From NCBI GenBank assembly GCA_002452215.1, contig DKCO01000043.1, positions 3,406 through 67,405 on the forward strand: a stretch of DNA of 64,000 nucleotides, in the 5' to 3' direction. The notes below the pieces were generated by a model. It saw only the letters and a list, made by a program, of their open reading frames with translations. It ran no database searches and was not told the DNA's origin. The position numbers and the translations under genes were made by a program. The stretch comes from Spirochaetales bacterium UBA6872. Lineage in GTDB: Bacteria; Spirochaetota; Spirochaetia; Sphaerochaetales; Sphaerochaetaceae. This document shows positions 1,627 through 16,681 of the stretch, piece after piece (position 1 is the stretch's first letter; each line of letters begins with the position of its first letter).

Positions 1627-3141
1627 ATGGAAAACAAGCTAGTAAAAATCAATTCCAATGATAATGTAGCTGTAGCAATCCAATCTCTGTTCAAAGGAGA
1701 TGTTGTCTCTGTAGATGGTGATACATTCACTTTGCTCTCTGATATCCCAGCAGGACATAAAGTTGCGCTGAAGGACATAGATAAAGGCGAGAAGATAATC
1801 AAATATGGTTATCCAATAGGAGAAGCAAAGGATGATATCAAGAAGGGACAACATGTCCATGCATTCAATATCCATACGCTTTTGTCCGAAAACGCAAGCT
1901 ACCACTATGACAAGAAGATAGCGGATGAATATCTAGAAGAGTTCCAAGCTGACCAAAAACGTTGGGAAGAACATGTTCCATTTATCGATGCATATGAGAG
2001 AAAAAACGGGAGAATTGGAATAAGAAACGCTCTATGGATCGTTCCCACAGTCGGATGCGTGAATGGAATTGCAAAAAAACTTGAAGCATGGGGAAACCAA
2101 GAACTTGGCATTGAGGATGGAGTCCATGCATGGACACATCCTTTTGGATGCTCTCAAATGGGTACAGATCACGAGAATACAAGGAAGATACTTGCCGATT
2201 TGGTGCACCATCCAAATGCGGGAGGCGTTTTGGTTTTGGGTCTTGGATGCGAAAACAATACAATGGACTCATTCAAAGAACTCGTTGGAGAGGTGGATCC
2301 ATCAAGAGTAAAGTTCCTTGTTGCCCAAGAGTCAGAAGATGAAATTACTGATGCGCAGAGTCTTATGCGTAAGATTTCAGAGACAATCAAAAACGACAAA
2401 AGAACTCCTCAACCAATGTCAAAACTTGTAGTTGGCTTCAAATGTGGAGGATCTGATGGTCTTTCTGGAATAACAGCGAACCCTCTTGTTGGGCGCTTTT
2501 GCAATGAGCTTACAGCAATGGGTGGAACAGCTATCCTAACAGAAGTTCCTGAGATGTTTGGAGCTGAGCAAATATTGATGAACAGAGCCACAGACGAAAC
2601 TGTTTATAAACAAATCGTTGACTTGATTGACTCATTCAAGGATTACTTTGTGCAACATCATCAAGTAGTTTACGAAAATCCAAGTCCAGGAAACAAAGCT
2701 GGTGGCATCTCCACTTTGGAAGACAAATCTCTCGGATGCGTGCAAAAAGGCGGGAAGGCACCTGTTATAGATGTTTTGAAGTACGGAGAAAGAGTCAAGA
2801 AAAATGGTCTTAACCTTCTTTGGGGACCAGGAAATGATATCGTTTCTACAACAGCTCAAACAGCTGCAGGAGCAAATATAATCCTATTCACAACTGGAAG
2901 AGGAACTCCACTTGGAGCACCTGTTCCAACTGTAAAGATAGCGACTAATGATCATCTTTCATCTTTCAAGACGAACTGGATTGACTATAATGCAGGCAAA
3001 ATGCTCAAAATCGATCCACAAAGCGTTACAAATGAGCTTATAGCTCTGATCACTGCTATCGCAAATGGCGAGAAGCATACAAAGAATGAGATCAATGGAT
3101 ATGCTGAGATCTCATTATTCAAAGATGGAGTAATACTATGA
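1627..3141 (+). CDS. uxaA: Altronate dehydratase
   Basis: 504-aa ORF with a SAF-like N-terminal domain (NDNVAVA...GHKVAL) and a UxaA/GarD-type C-terminal domain. Its stop overlaps the uxaC start. Confidence 0.85.
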   Translation: MENKLVKINSNDNVAVAIQSLFKGDVVSVDGDTFTLLSDIPAGHKVALKDIDKGEKIIKYGYPIGEAKDDIKKGQHVHAFNIHTLLSENASYHYDKKIADEYLEEFQADQKRWEEHVPFIDAYERKNGRIGIRNALWIVPTVGCVNGIAKKLEAWGNQELGIEDGVHAWTHPFGCSQMGTDHENTRKILADLVHHPNAGGVLVLGLGCENNTMDSFKELVGEVDPSRVKFLVAQESEDEITDAQSLMRKISETIKNDKRTPQPMSKLVVGFKCGGSDGLSGITANPLVGRFCNELTAMGGTAILTEVPEMFGAEQILMNRATDETVYKQIVDLIDSFKDYFVQHHQVVYENPSPGNKAGGISTLEDKSLGCVQKGGKAPVIDVLKYGERVKKNGLNLLWGPGNDIVSTTAQTAAGANIILFTTGRGTPLGAPVPTVKIATNDHLSSFKTNWIDYNAGKMLKIDPQSVTNELIALITAIANGEKHTKNEINGYAEISLFKDGVIL

Positions 3142-4544
3142 AACCATTTATGGGACCGGATTTTCTTCTTGAAACAGAGACAGCAAAGAAACTGTTTCAC
3201 AACTTTAGCGCTGATATGCCAATATTCGACTACCATTGCCATTTGATCCCACAAGAGATTGCCAAGAACAAGAGATTCGATAACATCACAGAAATCTGGC
3301 TTGGAGGAGATCACTACAAGTGGAGACAGATGAGAACATGTGGAATCGATGAAAAATACATAACAGGCAATGCAGATCCTTATGAGAAATTCCTTGCATG
3401 GGCTGAAACAATGGAAAACCTTATTGGAAACCCACTCTACCATTGGACCCATCTTGAGTTGCAAAGATACTTCGGAATCTATGATGTGCTCAACAGAAAG
3501 AATGCCAAGAAGATTTTTGACCAATGCAATGAAAAACTAAAGAATGATCCAGATTTGACAGTCTGGGGAATCATGAAGAAATTCAAGGTTTATGCTGTTG
3601 GAACAACAGATGACCCTGCTGATGATTTAAAGTGGCATAAAGTCATAAAGGAAGAAGGAAAGTGCCCTGCAAAGGTAATACCTTCTTACAGACCTGACAA
3701 AGCTCTTAATATCAACAAAGATGATTTCAAAAATTATGTAGATACTCTTGCAAAGAGTGCAAATATGGAGATCAATAGCGCAAACGATCTTGTCAAGGCA
3801 CTGGAAAAGAGACTCGACTTCTTCGTTGAGATGGGTTGCAAGGCATCTGACCATGCACTTGAGACATGCCCTCATACATTCTGGTCCGATGATTGCGTTA
3901 ACAAGATATTTGCAAAGAAGATGAACTCTGAATGCTTGACAGATGAGGAGATTGATGCTTACAGGACTTTTGTACTTGCAAATCTTGCAAAAGCTTACAA
4001 AAAGAGAAATGTAGCAATGCAATGCCACTTTGCATCAATCAGAGACAACAATGCAAAGATGTTCAAGCTGTTGGGACCTGACACAGGATTCGATGCATCT
4101 CATGACAAGGAACTTGCATATGGAGTATCAAAATTCTTCTCAAAGCTATCTGAGACAGATGATATTCCAAAGACAATCTTCTACTCTCTTAATCCTAAAG
4201 ACTACTACTCTCTTGGGACTTTGATGGGATGCTGGCAAGGCGATGGAGTCAAAGGAAAGATCCAGCTAGGCTCGGCGTGGTGGTTCTGCGATCACAAGGA
4301 TGGAATGGAAGAGCAAATGAAAGTCTTGGCAAACATTGGAATGCTCCCAGCTTTCATTGGAATGCTTACCGACTCAAGAAGCTTCCTCTCCTACTCCAGA
4401 CATGAATACTTCAGACGAATACTTTGCAATCTCATTGGATCATGGGTCGAAAACGGCGAAGTTCCAAATGACGAAGAGATGCTTTCAAATGTTGTGAAAG
4501 ATATCTCGTTTACAAACGCAAAGAATTATTTCGAAGGAAAATAA
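3138..4544 (+). CDS. uxaC: Glucuronate isomerase
   Basis: 468-aa ORF. The N-terminus FLLETETAKKLFHNFSADMPIFDYHCHL matches the conserved UxaC N-terminus. Confidence 0.9.
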   Translation: MKPFMGPDFLLETETAKKLFHNFSADMPIFDYHCHLIPQEIAKNKRFDNITEIWLGGDHYKWRQMRTCGIDEKYITGNADPYEKFLAWAETMENLIGNPLYHWTHLELQRYFGIYDVLNRKNAKKIFDQCNEKLKNDPDLTVWGIMKKFKVYAVGTTDDPADDLKWHKVIKEEGKCPAKVIPSYRPDKALNINKDDFKNYVDTLAKSANMEINSANDLVKALEKRLDFFVEMGCKASDHALETCPHTFWSDDCVNKIFAKKMNSECLTDEEIDAYRTFVLANLAKAYKKRNVAMQCHFASIRDNNAKMFKLLGPDTGFDASHDKELAYGVSKFFSKLSETDDIPKTIFYSLNPKDYYSLGTLMGCWQGDGVKGKIQLGSAWWFCDHKDGMEEQMKVLANIGMLPAFIGMLTDSRSFLSYSRHEYFRRILCNLIGSWVENGEVPNDEEMLSNVVKDISFTNAKNYFEGK

Positions 4545-4545
4545 G

Positions 4546-5322
4546 ATGCAACGAGAGAATGATGAGAAGCAAATAAGCGCTGTTGGACGTACGCTTTCAA
4601 TCCTGGAGGCGCTTAGCAAAGAGGAATCAATAAATCTTGAACGTCTTTCCAAGACAACATCCTTGCCAAAAGCAACACTTCTTAGATTTCTCTCAACTCT
4701 TGTTAGCCTTGGCTATGTATTTAGAGACGATGGAGATAACTACCATCTAACCTTAAAGATGTTCTCCATCGGCTCTAGAAGCCTTAATCATATCAACCTT
4801 GTTGATACAGCCCGTCCATTTACCAAAAAGCTATCAAATGAACTGGGAGAGACTGTACATGTTGGAATTCTGGAAGAAGACAAGGCAATCTACATACTCA
4901 AAGACGAATCAAATTACACAATAAGAATGTATTCGAGAGTTGGTAAAGCAATACCTCTATATTGCACAGCAATCGGGAAGATATTCCTATCATATATGAG
5001 CGAGAAGGATCTTGACTCATATCTTGATACACATCCTCTTAGGCCATTTACGCCAAAATCAATAAAGAACGTTGATGCGCTAAAAGAAGAGCTAAGACTA
5101 GTAAGAAAGCGTGGATGGTCGATTGATGATGAAGAGCATGAAGAGAACATAATGTGCATCGGAGCTCCGATTTTTGATTATACGAATTCTGTTGTTGCAG
5201 CCATCTCAGTATCATTTCCTCTCTTCAGATTCGACAAAGAGAACTTTGAATTGATCATAGATAAAATCACAACAACATCGAATGAGATTTCAAAGCTACT
5301 AGGATACGAAAAGGAAGACTAA
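4546..5322 (+). CDS. IclR-family transcriptional regulator (KdgR-like)
   Basis: 258 aa with an N-terminal wHTH (RTLSILEALS...LSKTTSLPKATLLRFLSTL) and an IclR effector domain. It starts 1 nt after the uxaC stop. Confidence 0.8.
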   Translation: MQRENDEKQISAVGRTLSILEALSKEESINLERLSKTTSLPKATLLRFLSTLVSLGYVFRDDGDNYHLTLKMFSIGSRSLNHINLVDTARPFTKKLSNELGETVHVGILEEDKAIYILKDESNYTIRMYSRVGKAIPLYCTAIGKIFLSYMSEKDLDSYLDTHPLRPFTPKSIKNVDALKEELRLVRKRGWSIDDEEHEENIMCIGAPIFDYTNSVVAAISVSFPLFRFDKENFELIIDKITTTSNEISKLLGYEKED

Positions 5323-5942
5323 TTGCTCTCAAGAACCAGAGCAATATAGCCAATATAACTCTCAGCAAGGAATGCTTGGCCACTTTCTGATGTCGGTGCT
5401 GTCAAAGACAAAGATACAGATGCACTTCCTTTAGCATTTCCTGCCAGCTCTCCATTCAAAAGCTCGTAAGTTCTTGCATCGATGTCGATTTTGCCCAATA
5501 TTGCATATCCACTTTCGTTCTTGCATGGTATTCTTGCATTATCGACTGTTATATTAGCCTTATAATTCAATCTAGCATGAGACCCTTCTGTCTCAGTTAC
5601 TCCGGATGATAGAACAAGACAAGAGTCGTTGGAATCGAACGAATCTGTAGCTTTACTTGAAAGCAGAATAAGCTTAAGTGCAATTGAGCTATAATTGCCA
5701 TGTATATCCCAATTAACATAAAACTTCTCGCTTTCAACAGATGTTTGCGAGTTGGATTCAAGAAGTTGGAATCTCACTTCTTTCAAATCTGTAGTAAAGG
5801 AATCTGGGGAACTGTAAAAACCAACTCTCATTGCTTCAGGCTTCTCAAACCAGAGAGCAATACTCGAATTATTCAATGTAGTTGCTCCTAAAGAGAATAA
5901 AGAAAAAACAAGAATAATCAAAGCAATTGACGGTTTCTTCAT
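5319..5942 (-). CDS. Secreted putative fibre subunit S7 (orphan)
   Basis: Best start is the ATG at 5942 (MKKPSIALIILVFSLFSLGA signal peptide); the ORF track extends to 5999. C-terminal strand is ESYIGYIALVLESN. It shares the VGFYSS and FYVNWDI motifs with S4-S6. Confidence 0.6.
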   Translation of the reverse strand: MKKPSIALIILVFSLFSLGATTLNNSSIALWFEKPEAMRVGFYSSPDSFTTDLKEVRFQLLESNSQTSVESEKFYVNWDIHGNYSSIALKLILLSSKATDSFDSNDSCLVLSSGVTETEGSHARLNYKANITVDNARIPCKNESGYAILGKIDIDARTYELLNGELAGNAKGSASVSLSLTAPTSESGQAFLAESYIGYIALVLESN

Positions 5943-5952
5943 ATTAACCACT

Positions 5953-6489
5953 TCATCCTTCATAGCTGATTGTAACTTTGATTGAACCAGAAAACACATT
6001 ATATTTCCCTACGCCTTGTTTCAATTCATTTGATGGGATTTGCAAAACGATATACTGTGAGCCAGCTATTGGATAATCTCGTCCAGATATATAGATTGTT
6101 GCATTTTTGTTTTCTTTTGAAGAGAGTTTTGTCCCATTTATTGCTAAAGGACTTTGCCAATTTATTTCGATTGTCGAATTGTTTGCTTTCAAAGGTTCAA
6201 ATTCCGAGAGAGTTATAGTTATTGCATTTCTTGTATATACTTTCCACCAGATATAGAAACTTGCTTGACGAAAACTACTATTATCTTGCAGAACAAAATC
6301 AACATAATCCAGCTCAATGCTACTAGTGTCATCGTTTATACTTTTGATTTCTTTTGAGCTGACACCAAAATCTATACCGCTTTTTGCGCCAGCGAAAGCT
6401 ACATCGAGAACATCCTCTCCTAGCTGTATTGAATACAACGATATAGGCAAAACAAACAATATGATTAAAGAAAGAACCCTTTTTATCAT
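5953..6489 (-). CDS. Secreted putative fibre subunit S6 (orphan)
   Basis: Signal peptide MIKRVLSLIILFVLPISLYS. C-terminus is GKYNVFSGSIKVTISYEG. The start abuts the S5 stop with no gap. Confidence 0.6.
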   Translation of the reverse strand: MIKRVLSLIILFVLPISLYSIQLGEDVLDVAFAGAKSGIDFGVSSKEIKSINDDTSSIELDYVDFVLQDNSSFRQASFYIWWKVYTRNAITITLSEFEPLKANNSTIEINWQSPLAINGTKLSSKENKNATIYISGRDYPIAGSQYIVLQIPSNELKQGVGKYNVFSGSIKVTISYEG

Positions 6490-7077
6490 TCAATCTCCTG
6501 TAACATATAACAAAGCAAGTTTTCCAGTTTCTTTGTTCGGTAGTTTCGCAATGTCAGAGATAGCTGCAGTAGCATTGACTCCCAACTTGAAAATCTCAGC
6601 ACAAACGATTTCATCTTTATCGGGGATAAAGTATCCAAAATCATAGTCAGAGTCAAAAAAGGAAGAAGGCTCAACTTGAACTATCTCACGCCCATCATTG
6701 AATGAAGGAAAATCAAAACCTAATTCAAGTACAGAATCATCTTGATACTTGAAGTTCTTGCCAAGCAAATATATCTTCACATCATTGCTTGAGTTGATCT
6801 GATAGTAAATCCTTGGTTCTGCAGAAAAAACCAATTTTTCATTCGTAGAAAGATTATCATCTTGAAGCAAACTAATGCTATTTAGCCTATTAAGACCAAC
6901 AGTATCGACAGAAATAGTTGTTATAGTGCTATCAGTAAAACCAACAACCACTTTGGTATTTTTCTCGTTTGACAAATCCAAGCGCAAGTTAATATTCTTG
7001 CTCTCAGTTTTGGCAGCCCCCAAATTGAAGCTGCCAAATGATATCAACAATAAAAAGTACAGACAAATTCTATGCAT
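6490..7077 (-). CDS. Secreted putative fibre subunit S5 (orphan)
   Basis: Signal peptide MHRICLYFLLLISFGSFNLGAA. The N-terminal alternating strand is INLRLDLS. Also has the VVVGFTDS motif and the C-terminus GKLALLYVTGD. Confidence 0.55.
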   Translation of the reverse strand: MHRICLYFLLLISFGSFNLGAAKTESKNINLRLDLSNEKNTKVVVGFTDSTITTISVDTVGLNRLNSISLLQDDNLSTNEKLVFSAEPRIYYQINSSNDVKIYLLGKNFKYQDDSVLELGFDFPSFNDGREIVQVEPSSFFDSDYDFGYFIPDKDEIVCAEIFKLGVNATAAISDIAKLPNKETGKLALLYVTGD

Positions 7078-7093
7078 TTATAGCTCGTAATAA

Positions 7094-7654
7094 TTAATTT
7101 TTTGCTGTAATAGCAACTGTAATGGTATCTGAATATTCAGAAGCAAGTGTTGCTTTCTCGATATCAGCTTTTAAAGCTGTAAAAGTCATAGGCACAGCAC
7201 CATAATATAGAGCCATATTACTTGAGATATCAAAGCTAATGCCATTTTCCAAATCACCACTAGGCGATACAGAATCTATACCACTATTATCTTGAATTGA
7301 GCCCAATTCCCCGGAATAAGCAATAGAGGAATCACCATTTTTCAATTTTCCACTATTTTGCGATGTTATTTTTATAGAATATTTATTGCTATCGCCTTTG
7401 ATTCTCCACCAGACATATGCATCTTGGTAGCTCATATTTTCAGAGCCAGAAAACAAATGTTCTCCACTTACAAAACTATCGCTTTTTGGAGCATTTTCCA
7501 CCAATTTCGAGGCCCCTGTAGCATCTGTAATCCCAAAACTAGCTTCAGTAGGGATTGTCAACTTAACATCAATTGATGCACCGTTTGCTGTTGGAGCAGC
7601 AAATAACGCTGTGCTCAACGCAAAAATCAATAAGACAAAATAAATCCTTTTCAT
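7094..7654 (-). CDS. Secreted putative major fibre subunit S4 (orphan)
   Basis: Best start is the ATG at 7654 (MKRIYFVLLIFALSTALFAAP), preceded by GGAGAAAAA. The ORF track extends to 7726 through a non-signal N-terminus. N-terminal alternating strand is ASIDVKLTIP. The C-terminus SEYSDTITVAITAKN resembles the G-x-Y-x-D-T-h-T-V terminal strand of chaperone-usher/SCPU pilins. It is the only subunit gene with a sizeable upstream gap (99 nt). Confidence 0.6.
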   Translation of the reverse strand: MKRIYFVLLIFALSTALFAAPTANGASIDVKLTIPTEASFGITDATGASKLVENAPKSDSFVSGEHLFSGSENMSYQDAYVWWRIKGDSNKYSIKITSQNSGKLKNGDSSIAYSGELGSIQDNSGIDSVSPSGDLENGISFDISSNMALYYGAVPMTFTALKADIEKATLASEYSDTITVAITAKN

Positions 7655-7753
7655 TTTTTCTCCGTCTTTTGTGTCATGCTCTATAGGATTTTGCCCACTT
7701 TGACACTCAAGTGAGCATCCTACCATATTAATCTATACTTTTAATTCCTCTTT

Positions 7754-9103
7754 TTAAGTTCCTTCGGATGAAACAACATGGATATATACATCTTCTTTAT
7801 ATCGTCCAGACTCCAAATAGCTTGGTGGAGAATCGATCGAGATCTGAATATCTGTTGAAAGAACAAAATATGTAACATATGAACCTGCAGAATGCTTTAT
7901 CGCACCTTCTGAGTTCCATCCTGAAATTACTTCTGGAGATACAGATGCCCCGACAACTCCATCCGCTTGCGAAAAATATGTTGTTCCATCAAATTCCACA
8001 TATTCCTCATCTTTACCTTTCATATACAGATTGAATCCAAGCGAATTTCTCATAGAAACCAAGCCTCCGCTTTCATCTTTTATTCTTTCATTCACAAAAC
8101 GAAAACGTTCGCCTTGAAGCGTTGGCTTGCTACTGGAGGATGCAAAAATATATATAGAATCAGGTATCTTGCTTTGGTCAGTTTCTTTCCCATAGTTAGC
8201 AACAAAATCGAGTTGAGCTATACTGATTCTTAAATTAACATCATTTTGCAAATCAAGATTCGATGCTGCAGGTAAAGGCTTTATAAACAAGCTCGCTTTA
8301 GATGGTGTTTTCAGAGCCTGATGCTCTATGTAGCCAGAAAATGGAATCGTAAATGCCTTCCCACTTCCCAAAGCCTTACCGTCTTTATCCCTAAGTTGAA
8401 TATGTACAGTAACCATCGCAACATAATCATCTTTTTCTGAAAGAATGTATCTCTTGCCATTATATGTAAGGCTCAAATCATTGTTATCTTCAAATCTACC
8501 GGGAAGAGCAAGGATTACATCGAAAAAGACAGCTGAGCCATCATTGCTGTTATCATCATAGGCAAAGGAAAGCTTTTCATATTGCGACTCCTCAAACGTC
8601 TCGTCGATTTCTATAACCTGAATTAGTTTCTCATCTGAAGAATTGCGTGACTGATAGTGTCTGGATGTCTTTACAATAACAAAAAGCTTAAATGGAACTC
8701 GATAAGCATCATTTGATAGTGATGCCATTTCCAATGCTCCAGTACTTGATTCCACATAGATTGAGAGCTCTCCTCCTTCCAAAGCATTTCGTAGACCAAT
8801 ATCGTCTTCAACAGGATCATCCGAATAACCTCCTGTAAGAACAATATTTGGATCATAGTATTTCCAGTTATTTGCTTGTGCTTTTTCCCATGTTGAATAA
8901 GAGTCATCTGACGGGAAATAGTGTCCACTCCATTTTAATGTATTTCCATTTGCAAGATTTGATCTGTCTGGATAGCAAAGACTCCTTAAATTTATGGCTG
9001 AGGACGCTAATGGAACCAAGTAATAGTTTGAATCGTCAAATTCATAAGCGAAAAGAGATGAAATAAAAAAAGCAGATAAAACAATGAGAATTAAACGTTT
9101 CAT
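7754..9103 (-). CDS. Secreted two-domain protein S3, putative tip adhesin
   Basis: 449 aa with signal peptide MKRLILIVLSAFFISSLFA. The pilin-like terminal motif occurs twice: DDYVAMVTVHIQLRD mid-protein and SGRYKEDVYIHVVSSEGT at the C-terminus. ATGA overlap with S2. Confidence 0.55.
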   Translation of the reverse strand: MKRLILIVLSAFFISSLFAYEFDDSNYYLVPLASSAINLRSLCYPDRSNLANGNTLKWSGHYFPSDDSYSTWEKAQANNWKYYDPNIVLTGGYSDDPVEDDIGLRNALEGGELSIYVESSTGALEMASLSNDAYRVPFKLFVIVKTSRHYQSRNSSDEKLIQVIEIDETFEESQYEKLSFAYDDNSNDGSAVFFDVILALPGRFEDNNDLSLTYNGKRYILSEKDDYVAMVTVHIQLRDKDGKALGSGKAFTIPFSGYIEHQALKTPSKASLFIKPLPAASNLDLQNDVNLRISIAQLDFVANYGKETDQSKIPDSIYIFASSSSKPTLQGERFRFVNERIKDESGGLVSMRNSLGFNLYMKGKDEEYVEFDGTTYFSQADGVVGASVSPEVISGWNSEGAIKHSAGSYVTYFVLSTDIQISIDSPPSYLESGRYKEDVYIHVVSSEGT

Positions 9104-9801
9104 TCTTCTGTCCTTATGTGTATTGTTACTCTTGATTTGTATTCTCCTGGTGGTACACTATCGGGATCATTCTTAATTTTATTTGTAGCATCTTCTGTGA
9201 AGCAAAACTTTATATAACCAGATGCATTACCTATAAAACCAGTTCCTGCATTTTCAACAAGCGCCGTCATACTTACGTATTCACCTTCATTTTGAGTTCC
9301 CCAGTCTGGGTATTCCTTGACTCTTGGAATCAAAAGATATGTACCTTTGGATGAACCGTCGTATATAAATAAAGCTTCTTGGCTTAATCTGTTTCCATTC
9401 GAATCCCAATAAGATAGGATAAACTCGAAGCCAAGCGAATATAAAAGCTCAGCTTTTTTATTTGAATCAGACAAAGGCTCGGCTTCTATCATTACAGAAA
9501 ACATTGCATTTGATATGAATTTCCAGTTTGCTATTATTCTTCCGTAGCCGGAACTAAACAGTCTGGTAACATCAATATCTTTATACCAAGTCGATTCGTC
9601 CTCAATATCGAATGGCATCCCCATTCTAAATTCAGGATCGCTTTGTGCTGGAATTCTTTCAATGGATACTTCCGTTATTTCTTTGTAGCCAGCTTGCAAC
9701 GAAAGTGGTTTTGAGACCTCAGTTGTATATATAACAGCTGCAAATATGGAATGAGAAAGGAGAAGAGTCATTATTACCAAATACTTTTTCATATCAATCA
9801 T
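9100..9801 (-). CDS. Secreted putative fibre subunit S2 (orphan)
   Basis: Signal peptide MKKYLVIMTLLLSHSIFAA. C-terminus is PGEYKSRVTIHIRTEE. It overlaps both neighbouring genes, consistent with translational coupling. Confidence 0.55.
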   Translation of the reverse strand: MIDMKKYLVIMTLLLSHSIFAAVIYTTEVSKPLSLQAGYKEITEVSIERIPAQSDPEFRMGMPFDIEDESTWYKDIDVTRLFSSGYGRIIANWKFISNAMFSVMIEAEPLSDSNKKAELLYSLGFEFILSYWDSNGNRLSQEALFIYDGSSKGTYLLIPRVKEYPDWGTQNEGEYVSMTALVENAGTGFIGNASGYIKFCFTEDATNKIKNDPDSVPPGEYKSRVTIHIRTEE

Positions 9802-10645
9802 CAGACCTCAATGTAATTGTCACAGGAAGAACATATACTCCAGGCACAGCTTTGACATAATCCGAAGAGTCAAGCGTAATTCCAACCACTCCAGATGCAG
9901 ACCAAATCCCATCGTCAATATCCTCATTTGGAACAATCTCATTTGCTGCATCAAGTACTTCAAAAGAGAACTTTACATCAAATGATGGAGAGAAATTTGA
10001 TGTTTTTGTTATATTTCCTCTGAGGGTATTTACATCTGAGGCAAAACTATCATCATACCCTGAAAGCTTATACACATAGCCTTTTTTGCCATTGCTATAT
10101 TTAACTTCCTTTATGTCTATTCCAGATTCATTTGACGTCGTAGTTGTCAATGTCTCAGATGGTCGAGAGAAATTATAGTTTATATAGTGCACAGAAAACG
10201 AAAGTCCAACTTGATTTGTATCCGTTGCCTCCGAGTATGTCGGATCCATTAAGTCAATATTATCGATTCCACCTTCTATTCTTGAAAATGGTTTTATCTT
10301 ATTTCCTCCGAATGCAAATGATAACGTGTAACTTCCTTGCGAGCATCCATAGACTCTGTATGAAAAGACAGCATGAGTCGAGAAAAATGTTGTATCACTA
10401 TGAGAAACAACTCCAAGGTAGTTGTCTATCGATGGAGTTATATTTATTTTCGAGTTTTCATTAAGGTTTTCCAATGTATTCGATATTGCATCTGTAATCT
10501 CAAGCTTGACAGGTTGACCATCAAGAAGATCCTTGCCAAGCTTGTATGCTGCAATCTCAAAACCAAAATCATAGTCCTGAGAAAAACAAGGAACAGCTGT
10601 CATGAATATCATACATAATGCTAATGCACAATTTCTTAATTTCAT
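9794..10645 (-). CDS. Secreted putative fibre subunit S1 (orphan)
   Basis: Signal peptide MKLRNCALALCMIFMTAVPCFSQ. C-terminus is PGVYVLPVTITLRSDD. ATGA overlap with the usher stop. Confidence 0.55.
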   Translation of the reverse strand: MKLRNCALALCMIFMTAVPCFSQDYDFGFEIAAYKLGKDLLDGQPVKLEITDAISNTLENLNENSKINITPSIDNYLGVVSHSDTTFFSTHAVFSYRVYGCSQGSYTLSFAFGGNKIKPFSRIEGGIDNIDLMDPTYSEATDTNQVGLSFSVHYINYNFSRPSETLTTTTSNESGIDIKEVKYSNGKKGYVYKLSGYDDSFASDVNTLRGNITKTSNFSPSFDVKFSFEVLDAANEIVPNEDIDDGIWSASGVVGITLDSSDYVKAVPGVYVLPVTITLRSDD

Positions 10646-13600
10646 AAAGCCTCCTTAAATCCAGGATAGAGCAAATCCCAAAATTCATCTGAAGAAAGGG
10701 CTTCAGAAAAAACAAGTCTCTTACAACTGGAGTATTGTTCAGGAAGCTTCATCCCGCTTATTTCATCAATTGCTTCGATATAGACATTCATTTCATTTGG
10801 ACTGTTTTTTTCACTTATCTCTATCAAAGCTAAAGCCCATCCATCATCATTTGGAATATCAAATCCATAGAGCCCTTCAGGAAGGTCTGAAAGGATTATT
10901 CTTCCGCTTTCATCGCTGAAGACATATCCATCTTCATAGAGTTTAACATCAATCTCAAAATCTCCAGATATTGAAACTAGGTAAAGCGGAGATGAGTCAT
11001 TTATCCAAGGATTCCCATTGATATCTGTTACTATAGCAGTCATTGCATAAACTGGGTTTGATTCCAGTGTATAAACAAATCCACGACCATTTGTCTTCGG
11101 TAGATAAAGTGCAAAAGAGCGAGGACCAGAGATTGAATCCTCACTTGTGCTGTATATCATAATTTGGTTGTTCCTTACACTTGAAACAGCTGAATAAAGT
11201 GACGTAGAGAAGAACTTATTAAGTTTTGATGTACCAAATGCCCCACTATATCCAATGCTTAAATCATTCCCTTTCAATTCGCCTTTTTGCTTAATTAGCA
11301 AGTACGATTGTCCGATCGATGAAGAAAGCGCAAAATAACCATCTGCAAAAATAGTGGATGTTGACAATGACAAATTACCACTCAATCTATTCAAATCAAG
11401 AGAGGAAGATATTCCAAACCCGAAATTGAAATAATCTGTAGAAGTTGCATATGATGCATAAAAGTTGCTATTTCTAAAGGATTTCATCTTTTCAAAGCTG
11501 TTATATCCAGGCATGTCGATTGAGCTTGATAAAGAGCTTTTCAACGAATGCATATTGAAATTCACCTTTGTGCTTTTTTCATTCAAAGATGATGATACAT
11601 TCCCTGAACCAAATGAGACTGATGCGTATACACTTGCAGATGCTCCAACGTTGCCCGCAAAATTGCCACTCAAATTAATAGATGTCGATAAATTTATATT
11701 CCTCTGAGGAGAAAACCCCAAAGAAAGATAAGACGTATAAGAACTCGACTTGAACACATCTGTATATAAATTGAAATTCGAACCGATGCCATAGCTGAGC
11801 AAGCCGAGTTTGCCACTTGTTGAAATCCCAACATTAAAAACAAATCGATTGCTATTCAAAATATCAGGAGGTGATGAGAAACCCAAACTTGCATTTATCG
11901 AAGAAATGTGCTTTTTTGACAAATTTGCTTGATGCGATACCCGTACATAAATCTCCGGAAAATGATAGTTACCATCTGATAGCTTTCTCTGATAAAGATT
12001 TAAATTATAACGAGTTGTCCCAATCGAGCTTGCTTGAGTCAGCTCGAAATTAACCTTGCCTTGCATATTCATTTGATTCTTATCTGTTGGCAAATTCGAA
12101 ACAGCGATTGCACCTCGAAGCAGCAAGGAATTCGAAAGTCCATATGAGTAATCAAATGATAAAGAAAGATTCCTCGGATCATATTGATAGTATTTTCCAC
12201 CAAGACTAAAACCAATTGAACCTTCTCTTATTTTATCCTTCGACAAAAGCGTTTCTCTCCCAATTGCCAGACTGAGGTTATAATAGAATTCCCCGGGATA
12301 AAGCAAAGATGAGTAATATGAAAATTCATGTATTATCTCTTTTGGTGCACTTCCATCTGTTGGAGATACTTTAATAAGAACTCTGTTGACGCCTGTATAA
12401 AGAACAAAATCCTCAAGTTTGTACTTTCCAGGGTTCAAGATCTTGCTATACAAAACCCTATCATCGTTTATAACCTCTACAAGCGACTCTTTTTCGACAG
12501 TCAACTCAGCCTCATATGGACTCTTCCTCTCATAGCTATCATTTGAATATGACAAATTCTTTGAAAGTCTTATTCCTATAGGTGTCCCTAGTGGCGAGAT
12601 AATACCTGGCGAGATGCATCCCCAGCTTAAACGAAGCATTTTTTCTTCAAAATCGCGTCTGAAGGTATAACTCGAAAGCGAAAAATCCAAATCCCTATTG
12701 TTGAAATTCAGATAATACGAAAAATCAAGGAATATATCATACATAGACATCGTATTTGTTGAATACAATGAAACATCATAATCCCAGATCTTTTTTTGAT
12801 ATAAATACCAGCCAAAAGATGTGTTATATGAAGATTTGAATGAAAATACAGCAGGACTTATTATCTCAGCTCCAGCTAGCGGTTGTTCATCATATCTTGA
12901 ATAAGATGGTGATAAACTAATCGAAGCAAATGGCATATCATCAAGGTCAAATGATAAGTAAATTTTGTAATTATTTGCTTCAAATGACGACCTGACACCA
13001 AATTTTTCCAAATCTTCAAGAGAATAAGAGCTGCTTTGTGTATTGAAAATCCTCTCATAAGCCTCTTCTGTAAGATTGTTTTCAAGAATAAATCTCAAAT
13101 CATCAATCGCTATATATGGGATTTGGGAAAGCATCTCTACAGAAACAGAGCCTCGATTCTCTCCATTCACGTAAAGATTCATATAGTAGTTTCCGTCCTC
13201 AAAAAGAAGCAAATCCTCACCAGATATATAGAAATCAGCCCAGAAATCATCATCTTGCCAAAGCTCTGTAGTATTGATTTGAAATACCATATTACTATCA
13301 TCTATTGCTTTCTCATCACTCTTGGCAGGGGAAAGAATGGCTTTGTTTTCGTTGCAAAAATTTATCAAAAAAACAAATAGGTCTGCCATTTCATCTTCGC
13401 TGAATGTTTTATCAAAAAGCACTGTAAGTGTCTTTGCATCCAACGAAAAATCAAAACCAGCCGTCTCTGTATAGTATTTTTCTATAAAGCAAGAGACAAA
13501 ATTGCATATCTGGTCATCGGTGCAAAAATGTGGAAATAGAACCAGGAGTTTATCTCTAAAGCCATCAAATAGCAAAACATCATAAGCCAAATCGAGTTCC

Positions 13601-13932
13601 ATGGATACATGGAAAGCAAGAGGCGCGTTTCCTTCATTAACAATCTCACGCTCTTGCGAACTCAAACCCCAGCTCTCCGAATATTCTTCTTCAAGATTGT
13701 TTCCATTGCCATTTCCAGTTGGCTTTTCTAAGGACAGCATCTTAACAGATTTTGCATCAAGAACAGCATTTGATTGAGGAGTTTTTTCTTCATGCGATTC
13801 CATTTCATCTTTTGTAAAGAAAAAAACATCATCTCCCTTTTCATACAAAGCAATAGCAAAGGCAAACACTGTTGAAAGCGCTATTTGAATGCCAAGAAAA
13901 ATGCATAAGAATCCCTCTATTCTCCTTTTCAA
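10642..13932 (-). CDS. Fimbrial usher-like outer-membrane protein with long N-terminal extension
   Basis: 1096 aa, TTG start preceded by AAGGGAGAG. Usher-like landmarks: NLYVNGENRGSVSVEMLSQIPYIAIDDL (the h-VNG-x motif of usher N-terminal domains); LNPGKYKLEDFVLYTGVNRVLIKVSPTDGS (plug-like P-G-x-[FY]-x-h-x-D ... DGS motif); several hundred residues of alternating S/Y/N/G-rich amphipathic strands; and a C-terminal DING...YEDGYVFSDESGRIILSDLPEG Ig-like tail. Confidence 0.65.
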   Translation of the reverse strand: MKRRIEGFLCIFLGIQIALSTVFAFAIALYEKGDDVFFFTKDEMESHEEKTPQSNAVLDAKSVKMLSLEKPTGNGNGNNLEEEYSESWGLSSQEREIVNEGNAPLAFHVSMELDLAYDVLLFDGFRDKLLVLFPHFCTDDQICNFVSCFIEKYYTETAGFDFSLDAKTLTVLFDKTFSEDEMADLFVFLINFCNENKAILSPAKSDEKAIDDSNMVFQINTTELWQDDDFWADFYISGEDLLLFEDGNYYMNLYVNGENRGSVSVEMLSQIPYIAIDDLRFILENNLTEEAYERIFNTQSSSYSLEDLEKFGVRSSFEANNYKIYLSFDLDDMPFASISLSPSYSRYDEQPLAGAEIISPAVFSFKSSYNTSFGWYLYQKKIWDYDVSLYSTNTMSMYDIFLDFSYYLNFNNRDLDFSLSSYTFRRDFEEKMLRLSWGCISPGIISPLGTPIGIRLSKNLSYSNDSYERKSPYEAELTVEKESLVEVINDDRVLYSKILNPGKYKLEDFVLYTGVNRVLIKVSPTDGSAPKEIIHEFSYYSSLLYPGEFYYNLSLAIGRETLLSKDKIREGSIGFSLGGKYYQYDPRNLSLSFDYSYGLSNSLLLRGAIAVSNLPTDKNQMNMQGKVNFELTQASSIGTTRYNLNLYQRKLSDGNYHFPEIYVRVSHQANLSKKHISSINASLGFSSPPDILNSNRFVFNVGISTSGKLGLLSYGIGSNFNLYTDVFKSSSYTSYLSLGFSPQRNINLSTSINLSGNFAGNVGASASVYASVSFGSGNVSSSLNEKSTKVNFNMHSLKSSLSSSIDMPGYNSFEKMKSFRNSNFYASYATSTDYFNFGFGISSSLDLNRLSGNLSLSTSTIFADGYFALSSSIGQSYLLIKQKGELKGNDLSIGYSGAFGTSKLNKFFSTSLYSAVSSVRNNQIMIYSTSEDSISGPRSFALYLPKTNGRGFVYTLESNPVYAMTAIVTDINGNPWINDSSPLYLVSISGDFEIDVKLYEDGYVFSDESGRIILSDLPEGLYGFDIPNDDGWALALIEISEKNSPNEMNVYIEAIDEISGMKLPEQYSSCKRLVFSEALSSDEFWDLLYPGFKEAL

Positions 13933-13954
13933 AACACGACTCTCCCTTTTTCAA

Positions 13955-14695
13955 TCACTTTGAATATGAATAGTCGTATTTTATTTGAACAGTAAAACTA
14001 GATGCCTTCTCTATTTCCTTTGGAATCTCTAAAGAAATGCAAACGGAAGAATCTGTAAGAAGATTCACTCCCTCAACAGAGCTAACATCTTCATCTGATA
14101 GAGTATAGCTAGAACCATCATCTCCTTTTAATGTAACACCCAATGAATTAAGAATCTGGTGCACGCTTCCAGTATTCTTGAGTGTTATAACAAGCCTGTC
14201 GTCAACTTTACTAACATACCCCTCGACTCGCTCTATTACTTTGCTAGGGGCAACATAAGCCGCTGTACTATAAACAAACAGAAAGTTAATCATCTGTCCT
14301 TCTGATGTGACAGATGCACCTCTAGAGTATGGTATTTGCTCAGAAACAATCCTAAACGCCATCTCCTTCGTCACTGTCTTAGGCCCTCTGTATTGAACTC
14401 TGACAATTTGAGTTGTCGCTGGCTTTATAATCATCTTTGAAGGCTGTATTGAGAAATATTGCATAGCTGGTTCTGTATACTCATTTCCGTTTAAATCTAT
14501 ATATCTTTTATTGGCGCTTATTTCGATTGCAATAGGAAAATCCGAATCATTTGTTAGTTTATAAGTTTTTACAGATTCCACTCCGCTCGGATAGTAGGTT
14601 GCATTCAATGGTGACAATTGGTAAGCATGTACATTCGTAGCTAGAAAAAATAATCCGAGCGTAACGATAATTCTATTGAAAACTTTTTTCGTCAT
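13955..14695 (-). CDS. PapD-like periplasmic pilus chaperone
   Basis: Best start is the ATG at 14695 (MTKKVFNRIIVTLGLFFLATNVHA signal). The ORF-track start at 14725 is a TTG inside an inverted repeat. Domain 1 pattern: YKLTNDSDFPIAIEI...FSIQPSKMIIKPATTQIVRVQY...EMAFRIVSEQIP (F-x-h-x-P ... h-x-PG/A-x-x-Q-x-h-R-h ... E-x-x-F-R-h-x-x-x-E-I-P). Domain 2 pattern: LVITLKNTGSVHQIL (h-x-N-x-G-x-x-H). Confidence 0.65.
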   Translation of the reverse strand: MTKKVFNRIIVTLGLFFLATNVHAYQLSPLNATYYPSGVESVKTYKLTNDSDFPIAIEISANKRYIDLNGNEYTEPAMQYFSIQPSKMIIKPATTQIVRVQYRGPKTVTKEMAFRIVSEQIPYSRGASVTSEGQMINFLFVYSTAAYVAPSKVIERVEGYVSKVDDRLVITLKNTGSVHQILNSLGVTLKGDDGSSYTLSDEDVSSVEGVNLLTDSSVCISLEIPKEIEKASSFTVQIKYDYSYSK

Positions 14696-14721
14696 TTCAT
14701 GTTCCCTATAATTAATACTGA

Positions 14722-14751
14722 ACAAAATGTAGTGTATTTTTTACATTTTGT
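14722..14751 (-). promoter_or_regulatory. Perfect 10-bp inverted repeat (ACAAAATGTA-N10-TACATTTTGT) in the 5' leader of the chaperone-usher operon
   Basis: Arms at 14722-14731 and 14742-14751 are exact reverse complements. The repeat sits 27 nt upstream of the chaperone ATG, so it is either an operator or an RNA hairpin. Confidence 0.4.
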
Positions 14752-14834
14752 CTAATTTTGTATTTATGTCAATATAAATCGCAAAAAGATATCCTTTTCA
14801 TGCTATTCAGCATAAAAGGATTGTTGTTATATAT

Positions 14835-14863
14835 ACCTTACCCCCCCCCCATAAAGATGTCAA
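14835..14863 (-). promoter_or_regulatory. Candidate promoter of the chaperone-usher operon with a G10 tract in the spacer
   Basis: The minus strand reads TTGACA (14863-14858), then TCTTTATGGGGGGGGGG (17 nt), then TAAGGT (14840-14835). Confidence 0.5.
14841..14850 (-). repeat. Homopolymeric tract, C10 on plus strand and G10 on the coding strand of the downstream operon
   Basis: Counted directly: 10 consecutive C at 14841-14850. It is the only long G/C homopolymer I noticed in the window. Confidence 0.9.
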
Positions 14864-14990: not shown

Positions 14991-16025
14991 TTAATGTGAT
15001 GATGGTAATCTAAAACTGAAACTTGTATCAGGTTTTCTGCTTGTATCTTTTGTATACTCAGCAAGATACCCATTGATTGTTATCATACCAGTCTTTGCAT
15101 CAAGAATTGCGTCATAGAAATAGCCTTCTGATTCAAGATCCATTAATGGTGTCTTTCTTTGATGGTATGCAGCAAGATTCAGCTCACCCATATAGTCGTT
15201 CATACGATATTCGATATTGCCTTTATGATGATGGCCAACAAGTACAAGGCCTATCTTATACTCACTCATTATCCTATAAAGCTTGTTTCGCTCTGTTATA
15301 TCAGCAAAGCCAGTAAGAAACAATGATTGATCAAAGGTTCCGCCTGTTGTCATATTATCATGTGCCACGATTATCTTGTATTTGGCTCGATCTGACTTTA
15401 GTGCATTCTCTAAGAATGAAAGCTGAGCTTTCCCAAGTACTCGCATAGAACTGTCGAGCTTATATATAGAAAGAAGATTCCCATACATATAATGCCCCAT
15501 AGTGCCTGCAAAATCCAAAAGATCCCAACCTGTTAAGCCGTTACTATTCTCAGCATTCTCCTCATCCCATTTTGCGTAGTCGAAGATATGCCTCTCATGG
15601 TTTCCTATGCAATAAACAAACCAGCCTTTCTTTGTTCTTTCTGCTGTAGAATCAATAAAGTTCTTCACATTTTGATCATATTGGCCGTCATCAGTCAAAT
15701 CACCAAGGCAAACTAGGAATTCAGGCTTATCAGAATCAAGATAGCTATAAAAATTGTCATGGAAATACTTCACTGAAGAATCATCCCTATCACGTCCCAA
15801 GTGAACATCTGTGATTATTGAAAACCTAATGGAATCAACATTTATGCTTTGCACATCGCTTATCGATACAAGCTCTGTTTTTTCATTTTTTTGTTTTGAT
15901 ATATCATAAACACTCAAAAACGGATTCTCTTCATATTGACTGGCAATAGAATCTGGAAAAGTAATATTGCAAGAAATAGTCGATACAAGTAAAAGCAATA
16001 TCGCAAGTATCTTCATGTTTTCCAC
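14991..16025 (-). CDS. Calcineurin-like metallophosphoesterase lipoprotein
   Basis: Lipobox LLLVSTISC. Metallophosphoesterase motifs are present: ITDVHLG, GDLTDDG, GNHE, VAHD and GHHH. Confidence 0.75.
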   Translation of the reverse strand: MENMKILAILLLLVSTISCNITFPDSIASQYEENPFLSVYDISKQKNEKTELVSISDVQSINVDSIRFSIITDVHLGRDRDDSSVKYFHDNFYSYLDSDKPEFLVCLGDLTDDGQYDQNVKNFIDSTAERTKKGWFVYCIGNHERHIFDYAKWDEENAENSNGLTGWDLLDFAGTMGHYMYGNLLSIYKLDSSMRVLGKAQLSFLENALKSDRAKYKIIVAHDNMTTGGTFDQSLFLTGFADITERNKLYRIMSEYKIGLVLVGHHHKGNIEYRMNDYMGELNLAAYHQRKTPLMDLESEGYFYDAILDAKTGMITINGYLAEYTKDTSRKPDTSFSFRLPSSH

Positions 16026-16681
16026 CTATAAAGATAAGCAAATGATACTCCATAAGCTGTAATCATATGCCATGGATCCATCAAATACTCAGCTTCCCTC
16101 ATGAATGCAGAGACTTCCAATGAATTGGATTCATTGATTTCAACATCAATATAAGCTTGGTAAATTGGAACAGCTTTCCAACTCCTCTCAATTGTGTTGT
16201 TCAAACCCAAGTAAAAACCAAGCGAGACAGCTTTATAGCAAAGCGCAACATCAAGTGCAACCAAAGGTGAAAGAGACCATAGATATTCAACAGAATATGG
16301 CGAATAAGCCAGTCCTAGTTGTAGTCCCAAGCAGTATGAGAACTTCAAACAGCCAGCCTTCAACATTTGCATGAATATATATGAAAGATCTGTAAAGCCA
16401 CCTTCATTTGGCACATAAAGGCTATGCAATAGAAACTGATTATGCAACGTACGTCCTGTCTTCAAATCGTACAAAAGAGAGAATGCAACCTCATCGCACC
16501 CTTGTATTTGCATCTCAAAAGAAATGTCATTATAACCAGCTTTCAACCCAAATATGCTTTTGCAATAGGTAGTACTACTGTTTCTGTATCCAAGGTTCAT
16601 GCCAAGGGAAAAATCTCCGGCAAATAGAGCTGATGAAATCATAGAAAAAACTATTACCAGATACAGTCGCACTTTCCCCAC
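16013..16681 (-). CDS. Small secreted beta-barrel-like protein (hypothetical outer-membrane protein)
   Basis: Signal peptide MGKVRLYLVIVFSMISSALFA followed by alternating amphipathic strands. I recognised no family. Confidence 0.45.
   Translation of the reverse strand: MGKVRLYLVIVFSMISSALFAGDFSLGMNLGYRNSSTTYCKSIFGLKAGYNDISFEMQIQGCDEVAFSLLYDLKTGRTLHNQFLLHSLYVPNEGGFTDLSYIFMQMLKAGCLKFSYCLGLQLGLAYSPYSVEYLWSLSPLVALDVALCYKAVSLGFYLGLNNTIERSWKAVPIYQAYIDVEINESNSLEVSAFMREAEYLMDPWHMITAYGVSFAYLYRWKT

Follow-up and report, generated by a model that had tools for sequence, protein, structure and literature searches.

Pili of the chaperone-usher (CU) pathway are limited to Proteobacteria, save for archaic systems in Cyanobacteria and Deinococcus-Thermus (PMC4654587). 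The donor residues of the archaic chaperone CsuC are V110, F112, M114 and Y116, a register-shifted motif of non-classical chaperones that ends in a conserved Tyr (PMC4654587). From the spirochaete Treponema pallidum, poly-G tracts are known in the promoters of outer-membrane protein (OMP) genes, where they vary in length in vivo and control transcription; in the tp0126 promoter the tract sets the spacing between the -35 and -10 hexamers, of which 17 nt is optimal (PMC7864442). Here we describe an operon in a 64,000-nt stretch of Spirochaetales bacterium UBA6872 (GenBank assembly GCA_002452215.1, contig DKCO01000043.1, positions 3,406 to 67,405 of the forward strand; hereafter the window). It encodes a PapD-like chaperone, an outer-membrane usher and seven secreted subunits (S1-S7), and is very probably a non-classical CU pilus operon, with probably phase-variable expression, from a gut spirochaete not yet in culture (Spirochaetales, Sphaerochaetaceae or Ornithospirochaeta-like). 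Our literature search gave no report of CU pili in spirochaetes, in keeping with an earlier reading of the DNA made from its letters alone (the sequence-only reading), which had suggested a pilus class poorly described or undescribed for this lineage if the host is spirochaete-like.

The nine open reading frames (ORFs) lie on the minus strand in one direction, where the sequence-only reading had placed them, and span 5319-14725. Overlaps of 4-8 nt join usher to S1, S1 to S2 and S2 to S3. The other junctions are 0-22 nt, except that 99 nt separate S3 from the probable start of S4 (7654). The G+C content of the operon is 0.36, slightly below that of the flanks (0.39-0.45). We scanned 185,579 species, each represented by one genome, and obtained 22 loci. 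Almost all are in metagenome-assembled genomes (MAGs) from gut samples of humans, chickens and other sources that carry the label Spirochaetales, Spirochaetaceae, Sphaerochaetaceae or Candidatus Ornithospirochaeta; the record titles agree with the spirochaete-like host that had been guessed. About 20 loci have the order chaperone-usher-S1-S2-S3, then 2 to more than 10 genes of 150-230 aa. Because this order is kept in about 20 other genomes, the operon is far beyond chance. Proteins identical to those of the window are also present on dozens of metagenome contigs and in a pair of UBA MAGs. Firmicutes hosts (labels Lachnospiraceae, Clostridium and Anaerovoracaceae) were rejected, these being short contigs in MAG bins and probably mis-binned. 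One locus is rearranged (L010; 7048-7600 and 14176-14934): a small ORF downstream of a G12 tract opens like the chaperone, with a signal peptide and AYQLSSLD, and continues as a Cys-rich peptide; then come the usher, five small subunits, a complete chaperone gene in mid-operon, and S1-S3.

The identity of the chaperone, for which a two-domain PapD-like pattern had been claimed, is confirmed by Pfam, by structure prediction and by its G1 motif together. Pfam PapD_N matches at 25.3 bits (cut-off 23, E 1.6e-5). We collected 289 homologues at about 55-67% identity, and PF00345 is found on most of the 120 listed; one homologue carries the NCBI name 'molecular chaperone', and database entry P0012 has a length identical to that of the window protein. 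The AlphaFold2 (AF2) model, built with 52 sequences, has two beta domains and a mean pLDDT (the predicted local confidence score) of 77. Its best 50 Foldseek matches in PDB are pilus chaperones with the exception of one protein, the Ig-like WxLIP of Enterococcus. CfaA ranks first (1.2e-9), followed by CsuC and EcpB and then by CupB2, Caf1M, FaeE, PapD and FimC, and alignments of about 190-260 columns cover both domains. The WxLIP structures are from Enterococcus faecium (9i1y, 9i25), a monoderm host in which this is a two-domain Ig-like partner protein. When the chaperone sequence was searched directly against PDB no pilus protein was found; the family profile, searched against PDB sequences, gave EcpB as the best match (E 0.027) and CsuC (0.6). 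The G1 residues I-x-F-x-F-x-Y are invariant in 52 homologues and align with V110, F112, M114 and Y116 of CsuC in a weak, sub-threshold hidden Markov model match (whole-protein E 0.63). Two stretches of the free-chaperone model have low pLDDT, residues 21-32 (edge strand A1) and 133-141 (edge strand G1); this fits the reported disorder of the G1 segment in EcpB when no subunit is bound. An hhalign comparison with three class 5 chaperones gave 18%. The protein groups with the non-classical (alternative or archaic) chaperones.

The usher assignment is confirmed by the predicted fold and by transitive homology. Of the Pfam families named in the sequence-only reading, PapD_N matches the chaperone, whereas Usher (PF00577), PapC_N and PapC_C do not match the usher, nor SCPU (PF05229) the subunits. 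For the usher itself no PF00577, PapC_N or PapC_C match appears even at E up to 1, its homologues have no precomputed match to these three families, and neither its sequence nor its family profile found an usher in PDB. The AF2 model is nevertheless that of an usher, with the barrel of about 24 strands and the plug that had been predicted. The plug is a beta-sandwich inserted after six long strands, and pLDDT is 67.5 overall and about 80 in the barrel. The top 19 Foldseek matches in PDB are all FimD or PapC (E 8e-30 to 1.5e-8, up to 926 aligned columns), among them the translocation pores of PapC (2vqi, E 2.6e-16) and FimD (3ohn, E 6.4e-15). Beyond them come porins at E 1e-6 or weaker, some 20 orders of magnitude below the best usher match. 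The LYVNG, P-G-x-Y-x-L-x-D and DGS motifs singled out earlier are present, and in 10 homologues L253, Y254 and N256, G502, Y504, D508 and F509, and P524, D526 and G527 are invariant; S528 completes the DGS of the window usher. The plug also gives a sub-threshold match to the TcfC E-set domain at 478-526 (13.9 bits, cut-off 29.4), and the C-terminal region of the homologues gives weak CarboxypepD_reg-like matches.

Transitive homology was found with profiles. A word-indexed search with the usher returned 11 relatives, none with a Pfam domain. A profile from ten relatives was then searched exhaustively against 1.84 billion representatives and matched 632 proteins, about 110 of them full-length relatives with 1000-1500 aa. 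Lower in the ranking, at E 1e-23 to 1e-17, come proteins of about 820 aa that themselves pass the Pfam Usher gathering score (P0256, P0259, P0266, P0269, P0270 and P0275); their NCBIfam usher matches are weak.

The N-terminal extension of the usher is the most unusual feature of the locus. The sequence-only reading called the usher giant, and its length is indeed 1096 aa, but the surplus is due to an extension of about 245 aa alone, the core (247-1096, 850 aa) being of normal size. Of the differences from classical clusters that had been listed, gene order and subunit number stand, and usher size holds for the extension only. The extension has a basic N-terminus and a 22-residue hydrophobic helix (2-31), a disordered segment (32-117), a small alpha/beta domain (119-202) and a disordered linker. 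The linker holds an invariant DFWADFY (229-235) directly ahead of the usher N-terminal domain (NTD). The alpha/beta domain is common only to the window usher and its two closest homologues, while helix and linker are observed in relatives P0002-P0010 and P0132-P0164. By a crude hydropathy scan, the basic N-terminus of 43 family members is followed by strongly hydrophobic helices that number from one to five or more, usually three. After the helices of the relatives come 150-350 residues that are acidic or rich in Pro, Ser and Thr, with repeated (I/V)PxxPxF motifs. A Pfam scan of these extensions gave no match. Related PF00577 ushers of normal length have a plain signal peptide immediately before the NTD, and the extension of membrane helix and linker has no counterpart in studied ushers.

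All seven subunits have signal peptides and, as had been claimed, belong to no nameable family: S1-S7 have no match in Pfam or NCBIfam (NCBIfam is empty for all nine operon proteins), and none of the sources checked gives a subunit a name. S1 homologues stand immediately after the usher in most loci, and 19 members form one family; in S1 an h-x-I-x-A-Y-K strand comes after the signal peptide. An alignment of 17 S2 orthologues shows an invariant GMPF and a C-terminal P-x-G-x-Y-x-A-x-V-T-h-x-h. The S1 and S2 profiles share their last 21 residues (95.6%), and S2 is linked more weakly to the small subunits. A word-indexed homologue search with S2 returned S2 itself only. S3 is unlinked to other subunit families in profile-profile comparison, and the family profiles of S2 and S3 match nothing in PDB or Pfam. 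The motif Y-x-x-x-V-x-V-H-h occurs twice in S3, as DDYVAMVTVHI in mid-protein and as GRYKEDVYIHVV at the C-terminus, and S3 is a candidate two-domain tip adhesin. Both halves of S3 also start with a similar L-x-P-x-x-x-S-x-(I/L)N/D-L motif, which hints at two tandem pilin-like domains. A tandem duplication of pilin-like halves was rejected as a finding, having no statistical support (hhalign probability 2.4%), and is kept as a lead only.

S4-S7 and almost all small proteins of the related operons form one paralogous superfamily in profile-profile comparison (90-98%, mostly full length), although they diverge strongly (13% mean column identity). Two further features are widespread among the subunits, both anticipated by the sequence-only reading. 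The motif x-Y-x-x-x-h-x-h-x-h occurs within the last 24 residues of 129 of 161 subunit ORFs of related operons, compared with 24 of 248 control ORFs. In the window this pilin-type terminal strand, claimed for all seven subunits, is found in six, and S5 has no Y-containing terminal motif. Its presence in otherwise unrelated subunit families would be expected if one chaperone recognizes them all. An alternating-hydrophobic strand, claimed for several subunits, follows the signal peptide in S1 and soon after it in most small subunits (IDVKLTIPT, NINLRLDLS, VNLKLNM, AKLDLT). The mature N-terminus of S4 (...ASIDVKLTIPTEASFGI) resembles the donor strand of CsuA/B (QVDVKLNISTGCTVGG) in a local hhalign match; the CsuA/B sequence used is 100% identical to PDB 7zl4.

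A very distant kinship of the small subunits with class 5 pilins is probable, at a level of sequence similarity below proof. Scanned singly with Pfam (E up to 10), 96 small subunits showed no family repeatedly, and neither SCPU nor Fimbrial matched. A profile of the 96, searched against all PDB sequences, gave as top matches FimG (E 0.0025, partly via the signal peptide), CooA (0.056) and CfaB (0.067). The CooA and CfaB alignments cover most of the pilin through the terminal strand (lpagtYsgtltLel against PTAGNYSGVVSLVM). In hhalign, the small subunits against nine class 5 major pilins (from enterotoxigenic Escherichia coli, Salmonella and E. coli plasmid records) gave 57.8% (E 1e-4, 88 columns), with 0.2% for a reversed control and, as a yardstick, 0.2% for class 5 pilins against CsuA/B. 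The proposed kinship follows from these profile and hhalign matches and is in line with the structure search, in which the chaperone matched CfaA best.

The operon is preceded by a G10 homopolymer, passed over in the sequence-only reading, that is the sole G/C run of at least 8 in the window. Twelve related loci (L002-L007, L010, L015, L018-L020 and L022) likewise have a tract of G8-G12 upstream of the operon, each time with no second run of this kind in up to 22 kb. Its distance to the chaperone ATG is 22-166 nt in nine of the 12, most commonly 57-82 nt, and a TAnnnT-like hexamer comes directly after it in most of these nine. The sequence surrounding the tract is not conserved among related loci. 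Tract length differs within the window species: 13 near-identical contigs from different samples have G10 (11 contigs, three of them with an extra T), G9 (one) and G11 (one). This conservation and length polymorphism suggest phase variation of the operon. In the window the tract occupies most of the spacer between a TTGACA and a TAAGGT; the latter was missed by our consensus scan because only 3 of its 6 positions fit TATAAT. Part of the second promoter-like site (14745-14772) is conserved in L007 and L010, where the element T(A/T)TGACATAAATA is again found downstream of the G tract. Between the G tract and the second TTGACA of the window is an imperfect inverted repeat of 13-14 bp (14791-14821, ATCCTTTTATGCT ... 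AGCATGAAAAGGAT), which could be an operator or a leader RNA hairpin. In L001 the sole G tract, a G9 at 11525-11533, falls in the codons for the signal peptide of an S4-like subunit (MKKTLLLCLVFVMCWGGVFAAEVKLTYTPV), where a change of length would frameshift that one subunit. Coordinates of the operon features are collected in Table 1.

Table 1. Features of the operon and its upstream region (window coordinates; residue numbers are those of the respective protein)
Feature	Coordinates	Strand	Description and basis
Promoter-like element	14835-14863	-	TTGACA (14858-14863), 17-nt spacer TCTTTAT+G10, TAAGGT (14835-14840); ~140 nt 5' of chaperone ATG
G10 homopolymer	14841-14850	-	C10 on + strand; candidate slipped-strand phase-variation tract
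Second promoter-like site	14745-14772	-	TTGACA-16-CAAAAT, 10/12 consensus; downstream of G tract; consensus scan
PapD-like periplasmic chaperone	13955-14695	-	246 aa, ATG; signal peptide ending ...TNVHA|YQLSPL
Chaperone G1 donor strand	14270-14290	-	Residues 136-142 of 246 aa; I-x-F-x-F-x-Y
Outer-membrane usher	10642-13932	-	1096 aa, TTG start; identical to P0001
Usher N-terminal extension	13198-13932	-	Residues 1-245; AF2 secondary structure, pLDDT, invariant columns, hydropathy
Usher NTD (chaperone-subunit docking)	12907-13194	-	Residues 247-342, LYVNG 253-257; model, invariant motif, Foldseek
Usher beta-barrel	11323-12846	-	Residues 363-870; six strands, plug, ~18-20 further strand elements (DSSP of model)
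Usher plug domain	12325-12507	-	Residues 476-536, between barrel strands 6 and 7; model topology
Usher C-terminal beta-sandwich domains	10669-11301	-	Residues 878-1088; model elements
S1	9794-10645	-	283 aa, secreted, adjoins usher; C-terminus PGVYVLPVTITL
S2	9100-9801	-	233 aa, best conserved subunit
S3	7754-9103	-	449 aa, large conserved subunit; orthologues in ~17 loci
S4	ORF 7094-7726; 7094-7654 from likely ATG 7654	-	186 aa, small, pilin-like; C-terminus SEYSDTITVAIT
S5	6490-7077	-	195 aa, small paralogue; hhalign 94% to family F10; N-terminal strand NINLRLDLS
S6	5953-6489	-	178 aa, small paralogue; hhalign 97.6% to family F05; C-terminus GKYNVFSGSIKVTISY
S7	ORF 5319-5999; 5319-5942 from likely ATG 5942	-	207 aa, small paralogue; hhalign 97.9% to family F03, members often last in array; C-terminus ESYIGYIALVL

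We propose the following working of the system. Sec would export S1-S7. In the periplasm the PapD-like chaperone would bind the subunits, giving its G1 strand to a groove beside the shared C-terminal strand of each. Chaperone-subunit complexes would dock on the usher NTD, perhaps aided by the invariant DFWADFY just ahead of it, and subunits would pass the plugged barrel of about 24 strands, the N-terminal alternating-hydrophobic strand of each displacing the chaperone strand. The product would be a thin surface fibre. S1-S3 would be its conserved core, comprising adaptors and a probable large tip subunit, and the variable array of paralogues of about 190 aa (S4-S7 here, more than 10 elsewhere) may serve as alternative or mixed shaft pilins. 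Expression would probably be toggled by slipped-strand changes in the length of the promoter G10 tract.

Several observations weigh against a phase-variable pilus. The usher has no direct Pfam or PDB sequence match, the pLDDT of its model is moderate, and its TM-scores (global structural similarity) are lowered by the unmatched extension. S1, S2 and S3 have no detectable similarity to any pilin, and the links between small subunits and pilins fall short of significance (E about 0.06, hhalign 58%), so that a pilin role for S1-S7 is argued from context, shared terminal motifs and the weak class 5 profile link. All carriers are MAGs, and the fibre is a prediction from their genes. On the regulatory side, the G9 and G11 contigs have about 7x coverage and may contain assembly errors, TAAGGT makes a poor -10 hexamer, and the site with the better promoter consensus is found beyond the G tract, on its downstream side. 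The same machinery might instead secrete an amorphous coat or capsule-like polymer (compare Caf1 of Yersinia) or separate surface proteins, the paralogues being alternative coat antigens. The number of subunit genes, which is unusually large and variable (2 to more than 10), their strong divergence and a phase-variable expression that would suit an immunodominant surface layer all speak for such a product. However, the conserved S3, with S1 and S2 beside the usher, resembles the tip-and-adaptor set of an ordered fibre, and the nearest chaperone and pilin relatives (CFA/I, CS1 and Csu) all make pili. Capsule-type CU systems, moreover, usually have a single subunit. We regard a coat as unlikely and a pilus as the product to be expected.

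The low coverage of the G9 and G11 contigs and the downstream promoter would also fit a poly-G tract that is a neutral or structural promoter feature, with length differences that are sequencing or assembly noise and an operon under conventional regulation; G10 in 11 of the 13 contigs of the window species is in line with this. Yet the tract is unique in 64 kb, G8-G12 is retained upstream of the operon in 12 other species despite fully diverged flanks, one species has its G9 in subunit signal-peptide codons instead, and functional poly-G promoters have precedent in spirochaetes. We consider noise or neutrality unlikely and favour a phase-variable promoter. The hydrophobic helices of the usher extension may be a long or complex export leader that is cleaved, leaving an ordinary mature usher and an extension without architectural role; the window usher does have a single helix after a KRR n-region, with a possible A-I-A|L cleavage site. 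Outer-membrane barrels must pass the periplasm unfolded, which argues against a retained inner-membrane anchor. On the other hand, most family members have about three strongly hydrophobic helices and not one, the linker of 150-350 residues, conserved in kind and with (I/V)PxxPxF repeats, exceeds the needs of a leader, and PF00577 ushers of normal length manage with plain signal peptides before the NTD. We give a cleaved leader an even chance. A bolder possibility, which we put forward tentatively and think less likely than not, is that these ushers span the envelope: an inner-membrane anchor at the N-terminus (typically three helices, with a range of one to about five) and the long linker would stay on the outer-membrane core and hold the site of pilus assembly at the cytoplasmic membrane or at a periplasmic component, and together with the orphan subunits and the poly-G switch this would make a new CU clade, the first in Spirochaetota. 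If retained, the extension bears on how an energy-free outer-membrane assembly platform is coupled to the inner membrane.

Standard annotation misses this family because the Pfam usher and pilin models do not detect it. A conserved CU operon in gut spirochaetes broadens the known host range of the CU pathway, and the operon gives a candidate adhesin to commensals, as yet uncultured, that live in humans, poultry and other animals. Antigenic and phase variation of a commensal spirochaete pilus is suggested by the poly-G switch together with the expandable set of pilin paralogues, a parallel to the strategy that Treponema pallidum follows with its surface proteins.

The genes on either side of the operon do not adjoin it in relatives and are not part of it. 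Upstream on the same strand (14991-16681) is a gene for a secreted calcineurin-like metallophosphoesterase (Pfam Metallophos, E 2.8e-15), overlapped by a 222-aa ORF whose product has a signal peptide and resembles a small beta-barrel OMP. Both were rejected as parts of the system, since neither adjoins the operon in other loci. Downstream are a convergent gene for an IclR-type regulator and hexuronate genes; the hexuronate-utilization genes adjoining the operon (1627-5322) are uxaA-like, uxaC-like and IclR/KdgR-like. A class 5-type fimbrial operon of E. coli (L049, 3033-10177) lies between exuR and exuT, and its likeness to the hexuronate neighbours of the window operon is probably coincidence.

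Among described systems, class 5 or alpha fimbriae (CFA/I, CS1, CS4, CS14, CS17, CS19 and Tcf; cfaABCE or cooBACD) include the best structural match of the window chaperone, CfaA. Their CooA and CfaB are the best PDB matches of the small-subunit profile that do not involve a signal peptide, at the C-terminal ...aGxYxGxhxLhh strand. The usher plug gives a weak TcfC E-set signal, and both systems have a large tip-like subunit and small pilins. The order, however, is chaperone-usher-subunits in the window and chaperone-pilin-usher-adhesin in class 5 operons, and the spirochaete operons have 7 to more than 13 subunit genes where class 5 has 2. The window usher, with its extension of about 245 aa, gives only 0.4% in hhalign against CfaC-type ushers, S1-S3 have no sequence-detectable counterpart, and the host belongs to Spirochaetota, not to Beta- or Gammaproteobacteria.

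Archaic or sigma pili (Csu of Acinetobacter, CupE of Pseudomonas) share other features. CsuC is among the top structural matches of the chaperone, and both G1 donor motifs end in a conserved Tyr. The strands IDVKLTIPT and EYSDTITVAIT of S4 resemble VDVKLNIST and DYKDTLLVTV of CsuA/B. Archaic operons likewise have several pilin genes, and the archaic family has a wide phyletic range (PMC4654587). The window operon is unlike them in gene order and in its usher extension. SCPU (PF05229) is found in none of the 96 small subunits and not in S1-S3, hhalign of the small subunits against CsuA/B gives only 0.9%, and cysteines described as invariant in archaic pilins are absent from mature S4 and S6. 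The subunit families were rejected as CsuA/B relatives, as hhalign was not significant for any family and the terminal strands alone align.

With the classical FimD and PapC of type 1 and P pili the window usher shares its architecture (NTD, 24-strand-type barrel, plug after strand 6, and C-terminal domains), and the LYVNG and PGxYxLxD...DGS motifs fall in the corresponding domains, but identity is 12-16% and FimD and PapC lack the N-terminal helices and linker. The poly-G promoters of Treponema pallidum (tprE/G/J/F/I/L and tp0126) likewise place a tract of about 8-12 G in a surface-protein promoter of a spirochaete, and the 17-nt spacing of the window element, which includes the G10, is that of tp0126. 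Unlike in T. pallidum, the -10 hexamer is weak and the genes that would be controlled are a pilus operon, not porin-like Tpr proteins. Overall, the window system differs from all described CU classes in gene order, in the number and turnover of its pilin paralogues, in sequence distance, in the helices and linker of its usher and in host phylum.

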